Shown here: positions 2-33,737 of the stretch, in pieces
Position numbering within the stretch: the first letter of the stretch is position 1
Layout: the number at the start of each line of letters is the position of its first letter
Assembly (NCBI GenBank): GCA_000398025.1
Contig: ASKX01000003.1
Span: 6,143-70,142, forward strand
Source of the DNA: Candidatus Paceibacter normanii SCGC AAA255-P19
Lineage (GTDB): Bacteria > Patescibacteriota > Minisyncoccia > Minisyncoccales > Paceibacteraceae
Length of the DNA stretch: 64,000 bases
Direction of reading: 5' to 3'
The notes under the pieces: generated by a model
The model's database searches: none
Told to the model about the DNA's origin: nothing
Seen by the model: only the letters and a program-made list of their open reading frames with translations
Program-made: the position numbers and the translations under genes

Positions 2-1417
2 GAAAGTGCTAACCAGTGGCAATTTGGCCAGGAATTTTTATATTATTCTGGAAATAACCTTGATAAAATATTGTTCCGGGCAAGACTCTCCATAGTTTTT
101 CTTTCAATCTTTTTAGGTTGGTTTCTTTTTCATTGGGCCAGAAAATTAGGAGGCAACAAAACAGCCCTTTTGGTTTTAACTCTTTTTTCTTTCTCGCCTA
201 CTTTTCTGGCTCACGGCCGTTTGGTAACCACTGACCTGGCTGCCACTTTAGGAGTAGTTTTAGCTGTTTATTTTTGGCTGAAGTTCTTAGAAAATCCTTC
301 AAGGAAGAATATAATTTTCGCCGGTCTAATTTTAGGCTTAGCCTTACTTTTTAAGTTTTCTTTGCTAATTTTAGTTCCCTTTTTGGGGTTAATTACTTTA
401 ATTTATGTTTTGTTGAAAACAAAAAAAATTAACCAAATTTTAAAATACGTTAGCCAAGCAATTTTGGCTGGAATAATTTCAATGTTAGTAATCTGGTTGA
501 TTTATCAATTCCAGATAACTTCTTATTTCTCCGGGGCTTTAATGGCAATAAAAAGAGCCACCTTGCCTTCCTGGTGGCCCACTTATCTTTTAGGCCAGAT
601 CTCTTCTTTCGGTTTCTGGTATTATTTTCCCGTCACCTATTTTTTGAAAATCCCTTTAGCTTTTCATATTTTAACTTTAATCGCTCTGTTTGGAGCGTTC
701 TGGAAGACAAAGAAACGATCTTTTTCAAAGCTAGGAGAAAAAATTCAAGGTTGGATTGCAGAACATTTTACAGAATTCACAATGATTGCTTTTTTAATAG
801 TTTACTGGTTAGTTGCCGTAAATAGTCGACTTAACATTGGAGTAAGGCATCTCCTTCCCACTTTCCCTTTTATTTATATTTTAGTCTCGCTGGGAATTAA
901 AAATTGGCTAAAGAATGTTAGGCTGCCCTTTAAAAAAATAGCCGTCTGTTCGATTTCAGTTCTTTTAGTTTGGTATGCCCTTTCTTCTTTGATAGCCTAC
1001 CCTTATTATTTGTCTTATTTTAATGAAATTGCTGGTGGTTCTGAAAATGGCTACAAATATGTTGTTGATTCTAATTGCGATTGGGGTCAAGACTTAAAGA
1101 GACTAGCTAGATGGGTAGATGAACAAGGAATTGAGAAAATTTACGTCGATTATTTTGGCGGAGGAAACGTAGAATATTATTTAGGGGAGAAAGCTGTTCT
1201 TTGGTATGGTTCCTCTTGGTGGAGCTGGTCTGGCTGGCAAACTTTGGAAAAGTTTCCTCGAGGAAATTATTTTGCTGTTTCAGCTACTTTTCTCCAAGGC
1301 GGTCGAGGAGAACCAGCTCCGGGTTTTAATTGGTCAGCTGGCGAATACAGCTGGCTTAATAGCTACCAGCCTCTTGTTCAGATTGGCAACTCCATCTTTG
1401 TTTACTACGTTTATTGA
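2..1417 (+). CDS. Polytopic membrane glycosyltransferase, GT39/ArnT-PMT-like (5' end outside window)
   Basis: Frame is open from nt 2 (ESANQWQFGQEFLYYSGNN) into ORF 71..1417. Many hydrophobic segments followed by a soluble C-terminal domain. Family call rests on general resemblance only. Confidence 0.55.
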   Translation, partial: ESANQWQFGQEFLYYSGNNLDKILFRARLSIVFLSIFLGWFLFHWARKLGGNKTALLVLTLFSFSPTFLAHGRLVTTDLAATLGVVLAVYFWLKFLENPSRKNIIFAGLILGLALLFKFSLLILVPFLGLITLIYVLLKTKKINQILKYVSQAILAGIISMLVIWLIYQFQITSYFSGALMAIKRATLPSWWPTYLLGQISSFGFWYYFPVTYFLKIPLAFHILTLIALFGAFWKTKKRSFSKLGEKIQGWIAEHFTEFTMIAFLIVYWLVAVNSRLNIGVRHLLPTFPFIYILVSLGIKNWLKNVRLPFKKIAVCSISVLLVWYALSSLIAYPYYLSYFNEIAGGSENGYKYVVDSNCDWGQDLKRLARWVDEQGIEKIYVDYFGGGNVEYYLGEKAVLWYGSSWWSWSGWQTLEKFPRGNYFAVSATFLQGGRGEPAPGFNWSAGEYSWLNSYQPLVQIGNSIFVYYVY

Positions 1418-1483
1418 ATAAAGTAAAATGAAATAATCATTATAATTAAAAGGTCGTTTTTGAACTTTTTATTTTCTAAAAAA

Positions 1484-1921
1484 ATGAACCAAAAAACCAT
1501 TTATATCATTCTAGGAATAGTGATAATTTTGGTGGTCGCTTTAGTTTTCATTATTGGAAAAGGAGAAAAAGCAGTCAAAGCCCCAGGAGCTACTTCCGGA
1601 GAGCTTTCTGGCCAAGAGAGCGAGGAAGTGGAAGAGATTGTTAACGAAGCAGTTAAAAAACAAGATACTTTTATTTGTCAGCAGCTGATAAAGGAAGAAG
1701 ACAAGAAAACTTGCCAGGAAAAGGTGATTAAAACCAAAGCTCTTAGCCAAAAAGATTTTAGTATCTGTGAGCAAATTGAAACTGAACAAGGGAGGGCTCA
1801 CTGTCGAGACAGCATCATTATGACTCAAGTTGTTGAAACCCAAGATGCTAGTCTTTGCGACCAGATGAGTAATTCCCATACGGTCAAACAGTGCCAAGAT
1901 TACATAGTTTCACTTAAATAA
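1484..1921 (+). CDS. Hypothetical N-terminally anchored protein with paired-Cys repeats
   Basis: ATG at 1484 gives MNQKTIYIILGIVIILVVAL as a TM anchor. Repeated Cys pairs: ICQQL..TCQEK, ICEQI..HCRDS, LCDQM..QCQDY. TTG 1460 is an alternative start. Confidence 0.5.
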   Translation: MNQKTIYIILGIVIILVVALVFIIGKGEKAVKAPGATSGELSGQESEEVEEIVNEAVKKQDTFICQQLIKEEDKKTCQEKVIKTKALSQKDFSICEQIETEQGRAHCRDSIIMTQVVETQDASLCDQMSNSHTVKQCQDYIVSLK

Positions 1922-2013
1922 AAACACTTTTTAAAAAATAATTAATAAATTAAATTAGGGGCTGGAGCTTAATTCAATTTTAAGCTCTACTTGCTAATTT
2001 AATTATAAAAAAA

Positions 2014-3723
2014 ATGGCTCAAAAAATTTTAAAATTTTCTTTATCAGTTTTTTTGATTTTAGGGATGACTTTGAACAGTCAGATAGTTCTAGCTTGGACC
2101 GGTCCCCCCGGTCCCCCGCCCAGTCCTTGTCCGGCTGACTGGCCCGGCTGTTCTCCTCCTCTTAATGTTAGCTCGGCTGACCAAACCAAAGAAGGAGCTT
2201 TAACCGTTAAATCCTTTATTTACGGTGATGATATTCGGTTAGGATATTGGTCAGAGTCGGGCGAGGTAACGGTAGCTGGTGATATTGAAATTCATGACGA
2301 CTCAGAAAACCAAACTTTTCTCTTAGATGGTGATACTGGTAGATTGACCATTGGCGAATCAATCATCCTTACCCCTCGTTCTTCGCCTCCGATTGCTACC
2401 TGTTCAGCTAGCATTAAGGGTATGGTTTATTTTGATAGCGATGATGACCAACCCTATTATTGTAACGGTTCCGACTGGGTAAACTCCAAAGGTCCCACCG
2501 GTCCCACCGGCCCGACTGGTCCTGCCGGTCCAACCGGAGAGGGTAGCGTGGTCCCAGGTCCCACTGGCCCGACTGGTGCTCCCGGTCCTCCCGGAGGATT
2601 AGGTCCTACTGGGTTAACCGGCGCCACTGGCTCCACTGGCCCGACCGGCCTCACTGGCCCGACCGGTCCTACTGGCCCAACTGGCGCTGACAGTACAGTG
2701 CCAGGCCCAACTGGTCCTACCGGTCCTACTGGCTCAACTGGCCCGACTGGCCCAAAAGGGGCTACTGGGAATACAGGAGCTATTGGGGCTACAGGAGTAA
2801 CCGGACCTACCGGCCCAACTGGTGCTGACAGCGTAGTGCCTGGTCCCACTGGCCCAACTGGATCTACCGGCCCTACTGGGCCAACTGGCGCAGACAGTAC
2901 TGCCCCTGGACCTACCGGGTCAACTGGTCCAACTGGGCCAACTGGCCCTACCGGCGCTGATAGTATAGTACCAGGGCCTACCGGACCGACTGGTCCAACT
3001 GGTCCCACTGGCTCTTCTGGTCCTACTGGCTCTACCGGCCCAACTGGACCAGTTAATCCCGACGATTACGGTCGCTATAACGTGTCCGCTACTCTTTATG
3101 AAGGCACTTCTACTCTTTCTTCCATATATCAAGAAGACATAGGTTCAGACTGCGAAAGCGATAATTATGTTTACGGTGTTTTTAATTCTGGTACTTTGAA
3201 GTGCCGGGCTGATCAAGGTATTACTTCTGAATCAGATCCCCAAGTAGGCACTCTTACTAGTGGAAAATGGTGTACCACCAATGGCAGTACAGTTAATTGC
3301 ACCAGTGATGCCCCCAGCGGTGGAGGATATGATAGCTGTTCAGATATTGAGACAGATTGTAATTATGTTAATGAAAGTGGAGACGATATGAGTGGAGATC
3401 TCAAATTTACCCACTCTGATGCTGATATAAAAGCCCCTTCTTCTACTCTTTGGCTTCAGTATGGCACCGGGCAAAAAACTCACATTGATGGCGGGCTGGA
3501 AGTTGATGAATATCTTGAGATCCCTACTATGTCCTCTCGATCAGGCGTAGATGAGTCTGCCTATGTTCACGGTGATCACGGTACTTATAATTTAGGCGTT
3601 ACTTGTAGCTCTAGCAATCGGGGGAGGATTGGACTTAGCTACAATAATGATAAAAGCACTCACTCTCTCTGTTTTTGCGGAAAATACGAAGGTAGTTACG
3701 AATGGATGTGTTTGGTTTGGTAA
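2014..3723 (+). CDS. Secreted collagen-like (Gly-X-Y) repeat protein with Cys-containing C-terminal globular domain
   Basis: Signal-like N-terminus [20 protein letters not shown]. Long run of [13 protein letters not shown]-type triplets, broken by one GEGSVVPG and four GADSxxPG motifs. Non-repetitive C-terminal domain of about 230 aa. Confidence 0.8.
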
Positions 3724-3764
3724 ATTTAAAGGTTGATTAAATTAAAATAAATTGAAGAAAAAAC

Positions 3765-4316
3765 ATGATTGAAGAAAAAAGTCAAAAATTCCTCAGAATC
3801 CAAAATTTAGTATTAATTATTGGGATAGCTATTTTTATTGGCGGGATTTTAGTAATATTTAACGGTTTAGATGAAAGAATAAAGAGTTTAGAAGAGACGG
3901 TGAATCAGTTTACCTTAGAAGAAGGAAAGATCGTTCCCATAGAAGGAATTTCCGGCACAGGAGAAGAAATTAAGAAAGAAGAAGAGGAAGAGACCCTCAA
4001 GACCTGGAACGAAGTAGCAACATTTAACGGGGTAGAGAGTCAAAAAACAGATTCTTTTTCCGTCCCTACTGAAGAATGGAAAATGAAATGGGAGTTAGAA
4101 AGATATCCTCAGAAAATTGGCCAATTTGCAGTAAAAATTCTCCAAGAAAAGGACAACGCTCTACTTGACTCACTTTCCCGAAGTATTTTGCCAGGAGAAG
4201 GTATTTATTCTGAATCGTTTTTCTATTATCAGGGAGAGGAAAAATTCTATTTTGACGTGACAGCAAATGATTTAAATAACTGGAAGATAAAAGTATACGA
4301 ATTAGAGGAAAAATAA
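3765..4316 (+). CDS. Hypothetical membrane-anchored protein
   Basis: Single N-terminal TM (LVLIIGIAIFIGGILVIF), an acidic linker (KKEEEEE), then a soluble domain. No family recognised. Confidence 0.5.
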   Translation: MIEEKSQKFLRIQNLVLIIGIAIFIGGILVIFNGLDERIKSLEETVNQFTLEEGKIVPIEGISGTGEEIKKEEEEETLKTWNEVATFNGVESQKTDSFSVPTEEWKMKWELERYPQKIGQFAVKILQEKDNALLDSLSRSILPGEGIYSESFFYYQGEEKFYFDVTANDLNNWKIKVYELEEK

Positions 4317-4317
4317 A

Positions 4318-4339
4318 ATACTCTGCTCTGGCAGAGTAT
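4318..4339. terminator. Bidirectional hairpin between convergent genes
   Basis: ATACTCTGC-tctg-GCAGAGTAT is a perfect 9-bp stem. It is flanked by an A-run upstream and a T-rich stretch downstream. Confidence 0.55.
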
Positions 4340-5088
4340 CATTTGAAGGTCAGTTGAATGTCTTGCAGTTCCCATTCTACTGATATCGAATTAATATCGA
4401 GTGCTCTTTCAAAACCATTGGCCGCATCGACTCTCAGAGTGAACTCAACTTTACTTTCTTCCTCTCCCTCGGACTTTTTAAGCTCTCTACTAGGATTAGA
4501 CAGGTATTGTTCTGCCTCAGGCAAAACCCATTTCTTAATCACTTGGCCATCTTTTTTCAATGTAATCAATGGAGTATAGGTAAAGCGAAGAGGTTGCTCA
4601 GTAAGGTTTTCTATAAAGCCAGGGATGGTCAGCACTCCTCGAATTTCTGGTTCACCAGGTCCGCCAGCTGAAACAACTCTGACGCCAAAGAGATACTTAG
4701 CCCGGATTTTCCCTTCAAACTCAGTTGGAACTTTGGCCAGATGGTAGTAATCTTGGTAACATTCGGGACCGGGGATCTCTCCTTTATACATTACTTCCTT
4801 CACCTGGGTTCTTGGGTCAGCTGGCATTTCATTGGGAAACAATATGTGTTCCGCTAAATCCTCTTTGGTGTAAAGAGAAACTGGCCTTTCCTGATCCAGG
4901 CCAAGAAGTTGTTCCACTCTGGTCACTCGCCACTCCAGTTGGGTTACTCTGTCAGTCAGAAGAGTTATTGCTTCCCAAGGATCGCTTATGGCAGCTGCCG
5001 CTCCGGTGGGAAAAGTAAATATAGCCACCAGAAAATAAACAACAAAGACAGTCACAGCGGTTATGCCGATATTCTTTATAGCTTTCAC
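4339..5088 (-). CDS. Hypothetical membrane-anchored protein
   Basis: N-terminal TM (ITAVTVFVVYFLVAIFTF), a coiled segment (LTDRVTQLEWRVTRVEQLL), then a soluble domain. No family recognised. Confidence 0.5.
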   Translation of the reverse strand: MKAIKNIGITAVTVFVVYFLVAIFTFPTGAAAAISDPWEAITLLTDRVTQLEWRVTRVEQLLGLDQERPVSLYTKEDLAEHILFPNEMPADPRTQVKEVMYKGEIPGPECYQDYYHLAKVPTEFEGKIRAKYLFGVRVVSAGGPGEPEIRGVLTIPGFIENLTEQPLRFTYTPLITLKKDGQVIKKWVLPEAEQYLSNPSRELKKSEGEEESKVEFTLRVDAANGFERALDINSISVEWELQDIQLTFK

Positions 5089-21512: not shown

Positions 21513-21541
21513 TTGACTAGCGAAGAAATTTTCTGTATAAT
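21513..21541 (+). promoter_or_regulatory. Sigma70-like promoter of tRNA-Arg/tRNA-His
   Basis: TTGACT, 17 nt, TATAAT, ending 13 nt before the tRNA. The -35 hexamer sits in the loop of hairpin CTTCGCT/AGCGAAG (21504..21525). Confidence 0.65.
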
Positions 21542-30989: not shown

Positions 30990-31040
30990 GCAAAAAAGTG
31001 AAAACCCCGGGGAGAGATGCTTTTGTGAGCAGATCTCTCC
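30990..31040 (-). terminator. Hairpin terminator of the 297-aa gene
   Basis: Minus strand reads GGAGAGAT-(14 nt)-ATCTCTCC followed by CGGGGTTTTCACTTTTTTG. Confidence 0.5.
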
Positions 31041-31074
31041 GCCAGGGTTCTCTGAGTAGTTGAGCGATTGCGGG

Positions 31075-31968
31075 CTACTTGGCAGCGTTGGGCGCGTTGG
31101 AGCGTTGGTGTTCTCGCAGGATCCGTTGGACCTCTGGGCAATTCGATTCCATCTTTGCCCAGGCCTTGAAAAGGTGGGGTACCGGGTCAAGACTGCTCTG
31201 AGTCAGCCGACCCAGAGAAACCATTTGCCCTTCCCTTACCCCGAATTTATTTTCGGGGTCGAGCACCTTTTCGTAGATAGCCGTCTTCTCCTTTGGTTTG
31301 ATAAGGATGGTGATGCCGAATGATGCTTGGACGGTTTGTCCATTTGTCATCTTGTGGCGCAGGCTCAGGAAATACATCCTGATCCTGATTTCCTCCTCAA
31401 TGACGCCAAGGAGTACCTTTGTCGCGATGCCATCGTTCCAGGGGGTTATATCACCCTCCAAAGCATCAACAACCACTTGCCGATGGGCCCACCGCTTTTG
31501 GAACCAATCAGGGGTCTTGGAGAGTAAAAGCCAATCGTCTGGCAAATTCCCTTTCACCTTGTATCCACTATCAAAGTGGATTTTAGGTTCCCCTTTTGGT
31601 TCCTGGGATGGTATGACCTCTACCCGTATGATTTCACCAGGGACGAAATCCCCAATAATGTCTACGAGTCCGCCTTTTTCCAGTACTTCCGGGAAAGGCG
31701 TATGAGCCATAGTGCTGAAAAATTCGGCGGCGCCCTTCCAGTCGTCTGCTTGAGCGAAGATCAGCCTTTGGGTCGATGCCGACCCTGGTTGTGGTCTCTG
31801 GACTATTGGTCTCCGGACTGTTGGTTTCTGGACTGTTGTCCTCGGCGTGGTGACTGCCGGTTCTTTCACGCCAGTCTCTTCGGCTAGTGCCTGCTGAGCC
31901 AGCTTGTGTCCTTGCTCCTTTGCTTCCCTCGCTGTCTTTCTACCCCTTTTGTTATTGTTGTCGCTCAT
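31075..31968 (-). CDS. Hypothetical protein with basic Lys/Arg/Pro/Thr-rich N-terminal tail; no family recognised
   Basis: 297-aa ORF with visibly higher G+C than its neighbours. Strong SD GAAAGGAGGTAAC lies 9 nt before the ATG. It has its own promoter and terminator. Confidence 0.7.
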   Translation of the reverse strand: MSDNNNKRGRKTAREAKEQGHKLAQQALAEETGVKEPAVTTPRTTVQKPTVRRPIVQRPQPGSASTQRLIFAQADDWKGAAEFFSTMAHTPFPEVLEKGGLVDIIGDFVPGEIIRVEVIPSQEPKGEPKIHFDSGYKVKGNLPDDWLLLSKTPDWFQKRWAHRQVVVDALEGDITPWNDGIATKVLLGVIEEEIRIRMYFLSLRHKMTNGQTVQASFGITILIKPKEKTAIYEKVLDPENKFGVREGQMVSLGRLTQSSLDPVPHLFKAWAKMESNCPEVQRILREHQRSNAPNAAK

Positions 31969-31996
31969 TATAAGTTACCTCCTTTCATACTTACCA

Positions 31997-32069
31997 AACC
32001 CTTTGGGTTCGATAGCTAGCTGGCGGGGGACTATAAAATCCCTAACCAATTAGCTATCCCCAAAGGGTT
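31997..32069. promoter_or_regulatory. 73-nt extended hairpin in the leader of the 297-aa gene
   Basis: AACCCTTTGGG pairs with CCCAAAGGGTT (11 bp). GATAGCTAGCTGG pairs with CCAATTAGCTATC (11 of 13). Apical stem is GGGGA-ctataaaa-TCCCT. Confidence 0.5.
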
Positions 32070-32117
32070 ATCAATCATTTTAGAAACTTCGATTTTTAAA
32101 GGGCCTTCAATGGTTTT

Positions 32118-32146
32118 ATTATATACAATTATTTCGATTTTGTCAA
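32118..32146 (-). promoter_or_regulatory. Perfect consensus sigma70 promoter (minus strand)
   Basis: Complement of 32141..32146 is TTGACA. A 17-nt spacer follows. Complement of 32118..32123 is TATAAT. Confidence 0.7.
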
Positions 32147-32168
32147 TAGCTCTTGACAAAACCGAAAT
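32131..32168. promoter_or_regulatory. Palindromic operator-like element spanning both -35 boxes
   Basis: ATTTCGATTTTGTCAA-tagctc-TTGACAAAACCGAAAT, with arms complementary at 15 of 16 positions. The 9-mer TTCGATTTT recurs at 32088..32096. Confidence 0.6.
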
Positions 32169-32181
32169 AAATAATTATAAT
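32153..32181 (+). promoter_or_regulatory. Perfect consensus sigma70 promoter (plus strand)
   Basis: TTGACA at 32153..32158, 17-nt spacer, TATAAT at 32176..32181. Lies about 40 nt upstream of ATG 32220. Confidence 0.7.
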
Positions 32182-32219
32182 TTAGATACGTAATTTGTTA
32201 ATTGAATAAGGAGGTAAAG

Positions 32220-33737
32220 ATGGAAAAGGCTAGATTGCCGTTTTTCTTAGGCGACCCTCGGAAAAGATTTGACTTAATTTCTTCTTATAATCGCAGAGTC
32301 GTTGGTCTCTGTGATGGGCAGTTTTGTTTCTCCTGTAATCCTGATGAGAGGGGAAAATTAGTGGGCTTTGATGGAGGACCGTTAGAGGTAATGCTTCAGC
32401 TTCAGTCAAGGACAAACCCTTTTGGACCTCCAAGAGAATATTACCTTGCCCATTTAGTGTTTGTTCCGGAGCAGGAGAAGGAAGAAATAATTACAGGAGC
32501 AGCGTCCGATGAAGCAATTGAGTTCGACGCTTCCTACAATGCCGTTCTCTATATCTGCGGAGGGACAAGGGTTTTGGTAGATCCAGGATCGATGGCTCTT
32601 ACCAATGGAAGTGTAGAAGGGTTGGCTAAATTAATTGAGGTCTACCGTCCAACTGTGGTAATAATTACTCACGGCCACCAGGACCACTGGCGAAACTTAG
32701 ATCTGTTGGAAAAGTTGGGAATACCAGTTTACCTTACCCCTTTGCCCAATAGATTGATTTCCCACACCGCCAGGATAGAGAAGAATTACGCTTTGCAGAA
32801 GATATTAAGAAAGGGAAGAGCTCAGCTGATCGACCCAGGAGACACAATAGACCTGGGAGAGATGAAAATTTTCACCTTCCCAGTTCCTCATACTATCCCT
32901 GAAGCAATGGGTCTATTGCTAGCAGGGGAAAGGAGAGCCGTGCATCTTGGCGATTTCAGGTTAGGTGAAGGAGTGGAAAAGGCTGAAATAATAACCACTC
33001 TGCGAGCCATTGCCAAGAGAAAGGTTGACTTCGTTGCCGTTAACGTAGTCAACTGCCACCTGGAAGGTTACGCTGAGCCTGAGTCGATGGTCGTTAACTC
33101 TATCACCAATGTTATGGTAGAGGCGAAAGGGAGAGTGGTTGTAACTTGCTTTTCCACTAACGTGGAAAGGATAGGAAGTATAGCGGAAGTGGCCCAGGCC
33201 CAGGGAAGAAATGTGTATTTCTTGGGTACCGGCATGCGACGCGCTCACCTGGAGTTAGCCCGAGAAGGATTGGAGTACGGAGGTGATGAAAACGATATCT
33301 CCCAGCCCAACTCCCTAATTTTTGTCAGCGGCTGTCAAGCCGAGGAAAATTCTATCCTGGAAAGGACATTGGAAGAGAGACCGCCTTACCAACCACAGGA
33401 ATCGGATACGCTCGTTTTTTCGAGCAGAGACGTTCCAGGGAACGAAGTCCCCATCAGAGCACTGATCCAGAAACTTACTCCAAAAGTGAGCACAGTGTTC
33501 ATCTATAAAGGGGAGAGAATCAGGATCGGCTTGGAAGAGAACCAAAAGATTAAGGAAATTGATTGTCATGCCACCGGGCATGGAAAGGAAAAGGATACTG
33601 AGTTAGTGATTCTAGATACTCTTCAACCAAAAGAAGTTCTTCCTATTCCTCAAGAAGGGGAAGGATTTGAGGCCTTCAAGGAGATGGCTGAAGGAGTAGG
33701 GATTAAAATAATCAGTGAACGAGTTGTTGAAATTTAA
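32220..33737 (+). CDS. RNase J-like MBL/beta-CASP nuclease with ~110-aa N-terminal extension
   Basis: SD AAGGAGG lies 5 nt before ATG 32220. MBL motif THGHQDH, DPGD, beta-CASP-like middle, and C-terminal CHATGHG motif. N-terminal GLCDGQFCFSC patch. Confidence 0.75.
   Translation: MEKARLPFFLGDPRKRFDLISSYNRRVVGLCDGQFCFSCNPDERGKLVGFDGGPLEVMLQLQSRTNPFGPPREYYLAHLVFVPEQEKEEIITGAASDEAIEFDASYNAVLYICGGTRVLVDPGSMALTNGSVEGLAKLIEVYRPTVVIITHGHQDHWRNLDLLEKLGIPVYLTPLPNRLISHTARIEKNYALQKILRKGRAQLIDPGDTIDLGEMKIFTFPVPHTIPEAMGLLLAGERRAVHLGDFRLGEGVEKAEIITTLRAIAKRKVDFVAVNVVNCHLEGYAEPESMVVNSITNVMVEAKGRVVVTCFSTNVERIGSIAEVAQAQGRNVYFLGTGMRRAHLELAREGLEYGGDENDISQPNSLIFVSGCQAEENSILERTLEERPPYQPQESDTLVFSSRDVPGNEVPIRALIQKLTPKVSTVFIYKGERIRIGLEENQKIKEIDCHATGHGKEKDTELVILDTLQPKEVLPIPQEGEGFEAFKEMAEGVGIKIISERVVEI

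Follow-up and report, generated by a model that had tools for sequence, protein, structure and literature searches.

Back-to-back full-consensus promoters between an RNase J-like gene and its divergent partner, conserved across a clade of Parcubacteria

Divergent promoter regions were reportedly grouped by Beck and Warren in 1988 into back-to-back, overlapping and face-to-face arrangements. The locus described here belongs to the first kind. It lies in 64,000 nucleotides (nt) of DNA from Candidatus Paceibacter normanii SCGC AAA255-P19 (contig ASKX01000003.1 of assembly GCA_000398025.1), a stretch that is called the window below and whose own numbering is used throughout. Two promoters of the sigma-70 type, each with the complete hexamers TTGACA and TATAAT, face away from one another between the gene of a 505-amino-acid (aa) RNase J-like protein and the gene of a 297-aa partner protein. 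As in the back-to-back class, the core promoters are on opposite strands, their upstream ends abut and each precedes one divergent gene. Unlike in ordinary back-to-back pairs, both promoters match the consensus at 12 of 12 positions across a clade in which the encoded proteins are only 21–56% identical, and a shared regulator site is apparently absent. It is this perfect pair, kept clade-wide, that is the notable part of a locus whose general layout is familiar.

Four other groups of described systems come close. In the shared −10 bidirectional promoters of Warman et al. (2021), the start sites are mostly 18, 10 or 23 base pairs (bp) apart (PMC12825309). The present locus resembles that class (Warman/Grainger) in that symmetry of promoter elements would yield divergent transcription from a compact region, but the main pair differs from it in having two complete promoters, no shared −10 and an axis between the −35 hexamers; its −10 elements are separate, 52 bp apart, with predicted start sites about 77 bp apart. 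Strong divergent promoters with a palindrome between or over them are likewise found at Tn10 tetR/tetA and at toxin–antitoxin operators. In Tn10 tetR/tetA and in autoregulated toxin–antitoxin systems the operator palindromes are conserved and the DNA-binding regulator is encoded within the cassette, whereas here the palindrome varies in its geometry and neither product has a detectable DNA-binding domain.

The hexamers and their spacing are those of the ideal consensus and of strong, escape-limited phage promoters such as T5 N25 (PMC3946193; PMC12464699), and the conserved initial transcribed sequence could tune promoter escape here. The present site differs in occurring naturally on the chromosome of a Parcubacteria lineage that has not been cultivated. 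Autoregulatory 5' leaders are known for rne, pnp, rnc and ribosomal-protein genes. The locus is like the rne, pnp and rnc leaders in that a strong promoter is followed by a conserved structured leader beside a ribonuclease gene, and unlike them in that the predicted hairpin is in the leader of the partner and not of the nuclease, with no matching family in Rfam.

Two full-consensus promoters and their conservation

The + promoter, placed to serve the RNase J-like gene, has TTGACA at 32153..32158 and TATAAT at 32176..32181 on the + strand, separated by a 17-nt spacer, with a start predicted near 32188. The − promoter, placed to serve the partner gene, has TTGACA at the complement of 32141..32146 and TATAAT at the complement of 32118..32123, again with a 17-nt spacer, and its start is predicted near 32111. 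Both sites (32153–32181, +; 32146–32118, −) had been recorded in a first-pass annotation of the sequence, and direct reading confirmed all of its coordinates; its statement that no further promoter in the window has both hexamers complete also held, a consensus scan ranking only these two at 12/12. An exact search for TTGACA-17-TATAAT gave two matches in the 64-kb window against 0.01 expected, a count that none of 100 shuffles reached, and with one mismatch permitted there were six matches against 0.30 expected. The promoter pair is a real feature, well past chance.

Each strand thus carries both hexamers at 12/12 with a spacing within 17 ± 1 bp, and each promoter is oriented toward, and at a fitting distance from, a gene with a ribosome-binding site. 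The ATG at 32220 follows the −10 of the + promoter at a distance of 38 nt, and in between lies the Shine-Dalgarno sequence AAGGAGGT (32208..32215, +), which favours this ATG over the TTG at 32202. On the other side, about 150 nt separate the −10 of the − promoter from the ATG of the partner gene (31968–31966), and AAGGAGGT, a strong ribosome-binding site read directly at 31977..31984 on the − strand, stands 8 nt before that ATG. The two core promoters do not overlap; their −35 hexamers are 6 bp apart and they point outward. Elsewhere in the window an 11/12 site at 21513–21541 (+) ends 14 nt before a tRNA-Arg gene (21555), and a second near-consensus 11/12 promoter (27455–27427, −) is directly upstream of a tRNA gene. 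As these 11/12 sites directly precede tRNA genes, the organism appears to use the canonical sigma-70 consensus.

Conservation was assessed in about 24 orthologous loci, reached through either protein: 22 loci were obtained through the RNase J-like protein and four to five more, independently, through the partner protein (L-numbers denote fetched loci, L001 being the closest relative of the window). In a scan upstream of the RNase J-like gene, both promoters were 12/12 in nearly all of the 22 loci, and the partner-derived loci showed the same pattern, with a 12/12 promoter on either strand; both −35 hexamers are invariant among the orthologues and the −10 hexamers are kept. The exceptions are a single changed −10 position on one side in L003 and in L174, the decay of the + promoter −10 to TAGACT (two mismatches) in L011, and a spacer shortened to 16 nt in each of L006 and L104. 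With the promoters aligned on their hexamers, the information content is close to maximal at the twelve hexamer positions and low in the flanks. Across 170 loci (about 0.9 Mb), of which 143 were unrelated RNase J loci, exact matches are confined to this intergenic region and to one promoter in a sister clade. Between the window and L001 the intergenic region is 91% identical, compared with 75% at synonymous third positions. With both at 12/12 in some 24 orthologous loci amid randomised surroundings, it is almost certain that the sites are genuine promoters and that each serves one of the divergent genes, as the first-pass annotation had proposed, and the sequence comparison indicates that the promoters themselves are under strong purifying selection.

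In the sister clade, the RNase J-like protein is 31% identical and is encoded between GatB and MiaA, without the partner gene. Two of its loci (L110 and L111) have an exact TTGACA-17-TATAAT at 2265–2293 (+), about 110 nt upstream of the start of the gene (2402–4228), and the equivalent site in L108 has one mismatch (TATAAC).

The distance between the two −35 hexamers (the gap) varies widely. It is 4 bp in nine loci, the commonest state, 6 bp in the window, L003 and L010, 2 bp in L008, 8 bp in L175 and 10 bp in L100 and L107; wider gaps of 24 bp (L012, L094, L173), 58 bp (L096), 69 bp (L001) and 106 bp (L102, L103) also occur. In L007 and L011 the gap is −19, the promoters being interleaved with each −35 inside the spacer of the other, and these two loci fit the overlapping class instead. 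With such a range tolerated in the family, from interleaving up to 106 bp, each promoter would be able to work alone. The inserts between the −35 hexamers of L096 (58 bp) and L102/L103 (106 bp) have sequence blocks in common, and also small hairpins that show compensatory changes (CCTCTG...CAGAGG against CTTCTA...TAGAAG); the inserts may insulate or bind.

We consider it likely, judging from the sequences, that the locus holds two independent, strongly selected full-consensus promoters of the sigma-70 type serving a lineage-specific gene pair. The − promoter would be transcribed leftward to give the 297-aa protein of unknown fold, and the + promoter rightward to give the RNase J-like nuclease. 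What selection would preserve is, in each promoter, the twelve positions of the hexamers and the 17 bp between them, not the palindrome in which the two −35 hexamers lie, and its target would be the strongest possible recognition by RNA polymerase. In vitro, open-complex formation and the rate of opening are maximal with TTGACA and TATAAT, and a perfect match to the consensus is absent from E. coli K-12 (PMC3946193), so that the conservation of two perfect sites is unusual. Regulation, if any, would most likely come after polymerase binding. One candidate is the initial transcribed sequence, the first 15–25 transcribed bases being conserved on both sides, which may reflect the tuning of promoter escape or a function of the RNA; the other is hairpin A, a covarying structure within the partner mRNA leader (see below). 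The sequence, its conservation, the synteny and the covariation of the leader are direct observations; from them we infer transcription from both promoters, presumably at high output, without a repressor and with control at the post-transcriptional level.

The palindrome between the promoters

The inverted repeat at 32131..32168 consists of two 16-nt arms about a 6-bp centre, TAGCTC, and includes the two −35 hexamers and the first 10 spacer bases of each promoter. Its arms, ATTTCGATTTTGTCAA (32131–32146) and TTGACAAAACCGAAAT (32153–32168), are complementary at 15 of 16 positions, and the 9-mer TTCGATTTT is present again at 32088–32096; on both points the first-pass annotation was accurate. A repeat finder lengthens the palindrome to 32-nt arms with 81% complementarity, and the single-stranded DNA fold of 32112–32187 has z = −4.9 relative to shuffles.

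Little of this symmetry extends through the family. The identity of the + and − spacers within a locus, which measures the symmetry of the arms outside the hexamers, reaches 12/17 for the window and 10/17 for L001, and in the remaining loci it is 5–10/17, not above the cross-locus background of 7.2. The centre likewise differs among loci (TAGCTC, GAGC, TAGT, GCAC, GGTA, TATATCTA). In the closest relative, L001, the very centre of the dyad holds an insertion of 63 nt that can form a hairpin, and both promoters of that locus remain perfect. Both promoters' spacers start with an A-rich run, TTGACAAAAT, which is retained even where the promoters are separated.

The palindrome would, on this evidence, be the outcome of two identical consensus promoters facing away from each other. 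In the sub-lineage of the window it may have been reinforced as the + spacer came to resemble the family-wide − spacer, AAAYCGAAAT, a likeness that could stem from sequence exchange between the inverted copies.

Several related observations were made at the dyad. The L001 insertion (1650–1712 in locus coordinates, corresponding to 32147–32152 of the window) has 14-bp terminal inverted repeats, CCCCGTTAGAGATT...AATCTCTAACGGGG, and the leftover centre 6-mer of L001, GAGCTA, is the reverse complement of TAGCTC in the window, a hint that the segment between the arms was inverted. As a repeated mobile element the insertion was rejected, no copy being present within the window. The dyad was similarly rejected as a regulon motif, as a second copy was not found in the 64-kb window, and the 9-mer TTCGATTTT at 32088–32096 was rejected as a third half-site, L001 having TTCAGTTTT at that place with the adjacent bases kept; the conserved element there is CYTTTAAAA and not the 9-mer.

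A third promoter-like site, P3 (TTAACA-16-TATAAT, 11/12; 32174..32201, − strand), was found in the consensus scan and points leftward through the dyad. Its −10 overlaps that of the + promoter inside AATTATAATT, and its equivalent is 12/12 in L001 and L003; P3 is limited to the sub-lineage of the window. P3 would compete with the promoter of the RNase J-like gene, reading through the dyad toward the partner gene. With overlapping −10 elements and predicted starts about 21 bp apart, the + promoter and P3 come near the 18 and 23 bp classes of shared −10 promoters.

The gene pair and the partner leader RNA

The predicted 5' leader of the partner mRNA, as deduced from the distance between promoter and start codon, is about 143 nt long (31969..32111, −). 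It is 91% identical to L001, as against 75% at synonymous sites, and its RNA fold has z = −3.5. Within it lies hairpin A (32000..32073, −), a long covarying stem-loop with no Rfam family. Across 16 loci, hairpin A has 17 pairs with 97% of cells paired; compensatory double changes are seen at 10 of the 17 pairs, and shuffle and slide controls gave far lower values. Many of its pairs on the − strand are G-U. A covariance model of hairpin A gave exactly one match per locus, always at the same position, and the − strand outscored the + strand by 13–48 bits. No Rfam family emerged for the dyad or the leaders when the window region and 11 orthologous loci were searched, the Rfam matches in the window being chance microRNA models only (E > 0.2). 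These findings make a good case that the 5' untranslated region of the partner gene contains a functional RNA element. Hairpin A is the most concrete candidate site of regulation at the locus, and control is probably exerted after initiation, through this hairpin.

A second leader motif, hairpin B, is found just 5' of the partner ribosome-binding site in L012 (about 2705–2760, −) and also in L007, L093, L096–L100, L102, L104, L174 and L175; it is absent from the window, L001, L003 and L010. By eye, its outer stem covaries (CUCCUG/CAGGAG, CUCUCG/CGAGAG, CUACUG/CAGUAG, UUUGUUGG/CCAACAAA) and surrounds two further elements, namely a small hairpin of the form GGGG-loop-CCCC and the sequence UUAAAY, which is conserved and single-stranded. 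RNAalifold, run on an automatic alignment of hairpin B, gave an inner 5-bp stem only and not the outer stem. Binding of the leader hairpins by the Arg-rich N-terminus of the partner protein was considered and found no support in co-occurrence: the basic N-terminus is missing from L104 and L011, which keep the hairpins, and hairpin B is missing from the window, L001 and L003, all of which have the basic N-terminus.

The partner protein (297 aa; 31075..31968, −) comprises a basic N-terminal helix, a disordered Pro-rich linker and an alpha/beta C-terminal domain of unknown fold. It has no match in Pfam, NCBIfam, PADLOC or PHROGs. Its AlphaFold2 model has a mean predicted local distance difference test (pLDDT) score of 66, with a confident C-terminal domain, and shows no significant fold match in the PDB or among viral predicted structures. 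The family is tiny, with 34 clusters among 1.84 billion representative proteins. Within the coding sequence (31792–31843, −), three tandem 15-nt repeats encode the Pro-rich pentapeptides TVQKP, TVRRP and IVQRP of the disordered linker; these are more numerous in the L001 partner, so that the copy number is variable. Downstream of the partner gene and ahead of a separate FtsH promoter, the repeat finder and the sequence point to a putative terminator-like hairpin (31002..31049, −).

The 505-aa protein (32220..33737, +) has matches to PF22505 and PF12706/PF00753 in Pfam, and the HxHxDH residues H151, H153, D155 and H156 are invariant in its subfamily. It combines the metallo-beta-lactamase motif with a beta-CASP domain, as expected of the RNase J family, and its best relatives in the PDB are RNase J proteins (E ~1e-20). 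The score against TIGR00649 is 121 bits, below the curated RNase J cut-off of 400, and PF17770, the RNase J C-terminal domain that canonical matches have, is absent. By sequence, the protein is a distant RNase J paralogue with a Cys-rich N-terminal extension. This extension of about 100 residues (32220–32520), which canonical RNase J lacks, has invariant C31, C36, C39 and H78, a pattern that suggests a zinc-binding module for nucleic-acid recognition.

The gene order is identical in all loci: L19, pseudouridine synthase, FtsH, partner, RNase J-like, TruD and S1. The loci are from Parcubacteria, two of them in named genome bins of the Parcubacteria group. Identity to the window across loci is 53–91% for the neighbours, 37–56% for the RNase J-like protein and 21–41% for the partner, the exception being L001, in which the RNase J-like protein is 86% and the partner 81% identical. 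In the window, the guanine-plus-cytosine content (G+C) of the pair, 0.52 (partner) and 0.46 (RNase J-like), exceeds that of the neighbours (0.35–0.40). The excess is present in every lineage sampled (window, L003, L006, L011, L012, L097, L100, L102, L107), with 0.48–0.64 for the partner and 0.44–0.51 for the RNase J-like gene, compared with 0.32–0.45 for TruD/FtsH across the same lineages. A recent foreign origin deduced from G+C was rejected for this reason, and the excess, being seen in all lineages, appears to be maintained rather than a mark of recent import. In L003, the FtsH beside the cassette (1326–4610) is 1094 aa long and has an intein (PF14890) inside the AAA domain; the FtsH of the window (629 aa) has none. 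As synteny is fixed and the partner family is tiny, vertical inheritance, not insertion, is indicated, and by sequence the gene pair is a vertically inherited, lineage-specific and fast-evolving module of a Parcubacteria clade.

Competing explanations and the meaning of the locus

The first-pass annotation had taken the palindrome to suggest a single dyad at which one dimeric regulator gates both genes together. Such a repressor, bound to TTGTCAA-N6-TTGACAA, would cover both −35 hexamers and switch both genes. The 15/16 dyad centred between the −35 hexamers of the window accords with this, and 4–6 bp gaps are the commonest state of the family; very strong promoters are, besides, often under tight repression, as in Tn10 tet and lambda PR/PL. 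The proposal nevertheless failed by the observation that the annotation itself had named as telling against it, since the dyad is not conserved in homologous cassettes in spacing, centre or arms. Half-site spacing is not fixed across the orthologues, where both promoters are still perfect at gaps of −19 to 106 bp; the centre is variable, the symmetry of the arms is at background outside the window and L001, and L001 has its insertion in the very centre. Nor do Pfam and NCBIfam detect a DNA-binding domain in either product or a regulator of the helix-turn-helix, ribbon-helix-helix or similar type in or beside the cassette, and the window has no second copy of the dyad. The palindrome is probably not a shared repressor site, and we regard the shared operator as very unlikely. 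Less doubtful, though still unlikely, is separate repression, in which a factor whose gene lies elsewhere normally holds each promoter off through an operator of its own, for example the conserved − spacer AAAYCGAAATTAT, the AGCT upstream or the initial 25 bases of the transcript. Conservation between loci is indeed higher for the − spacers (10.9/17) than for the + spacers (7.7/17), with 7.2 in the cross comparison, and an AGCT motif just upstream of the −35 of the − promoter is retained also in loci with separated promoters; two further conserved motifs are CYTTTAAAA, about +15 to +25 in the − leader, and TTAAAATCTAGYTA, after the −10 of the + promoter. These motifs, however, are AT-rich in an AT-rich genome and of modest information content, no candidate regulator is known, and promoter escape or a function of the RNA would explain the conserved initial transcribed sequences equally well.

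A role of the palindrome as a nucleic-acid hairpin, whether as a 5' stem-loop on P3 transcripts that protects the partner mRNA against 5'-to-3' decay or as a cruciform, terminator or recombination site, seems highly improbable. Transcripts from P3, a site that is complete in L001 and L003, would begin near 32167, where the hairpin has its foot; arm symmetry is strongest in the window and L001, within the P3-bearing sub-lineage, although L003 does not share it, and the TAGCTC centre of the window is matched by its reverse complement in L001. A terminator scan flags 32170–32129 (−), though without a U run after the stem. The stem is A+T-rich, with 4 G–C pairs among 18, its tail is TTGTATATAA, and it is placed between two gene starts, where no convergent genes need a terminator; this is not the make-up of an intrinsic terminator. 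Furthermore, L003 has P3 yet only about nine complementary positions, and most members of the family have neither P3 nor extended arms. The slimmest chance of all is given to the view that the pair is a mobile, selfish, toxin–antitoxin-like or defence cassette, acquired horizontally and kept silent; the first-pass annotation had called the layout typical of tightly repressed selfish, phage-like or toxin-type modules. The G+C excess over the neighbours and the fast evolution of both proteins, one of them a nuclease, would suit it. Against it, the FtsH/TruD/S1 context is constant in every sampled locus, the window has no flanking repeats, integrase or tRNA junction, PADLOC gave no match, and the single PHROGs match, that of the RNase J-like protein, was to a generic family of metal-dependent hydrolases; variable context, mobility genes and known families of such elements were all lacking, and a G+C excess found in all lineages speaks for maintenance.

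Two independent full-consensus promoters thus remain our preferred account, and several points weigh against it. Highly expressed genes usually evolve slowly, yet both genes here evolve fast. The greater conservation of the − spacers and the AGCT kept upstream of the − promoter leave room for a site-specific factor there, and the prevalence of 4–6 bp gaps implies some preference for the abutting layout. Moreover, very tight binding of polymerase can leave a promoter limited at the escape step, as is described for T5 N25 (PMC12464699); 'maximal strength' is therefore an assumption, since a perfect consensus can limit promoter escape.

A more far-reaching reading, which is speculative and which we hold to be rather unlikely, takes the locus as a hard-wired, clade-specific unit of maximal initiation whose control is entirely post-transcriptional and which feeds a new RNA-centred system. 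Were it true, that system would consist of a fast-evolving RNase J paralogue, a partner of unknown fold with an Arg-rich N-terminus and undescribed leader RNAs, in which hairpin A (together with hairpin B in other members) would be a sensing or autoregulatory target. On this view, the fast evolution and the lasting G+C excess would be due to a role in host interaction or against phages, played from a fixed place in the chromosome.

To our knowledge, natural promoters almost never match the full sigma-70 consensus. Here two letter-perfect promoters are held across a clade of uncultivated bacteria with reduced genomes and are tied to one rapidly evolving gene pair. They offer direct sequence evidence for the housekeeping promoter of Parcubacteria, which may be of use in annotation and in future genetic tools. 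The range of spacings, from interleaved to 106 bp without the loss of either promoter, amounts to a natural experiment indicating that a conspicuous palindrome need not be an operator. Finally, the locus points to an uncharacterised module of a nuclease and its partner that would carry a new structured leader RNA.

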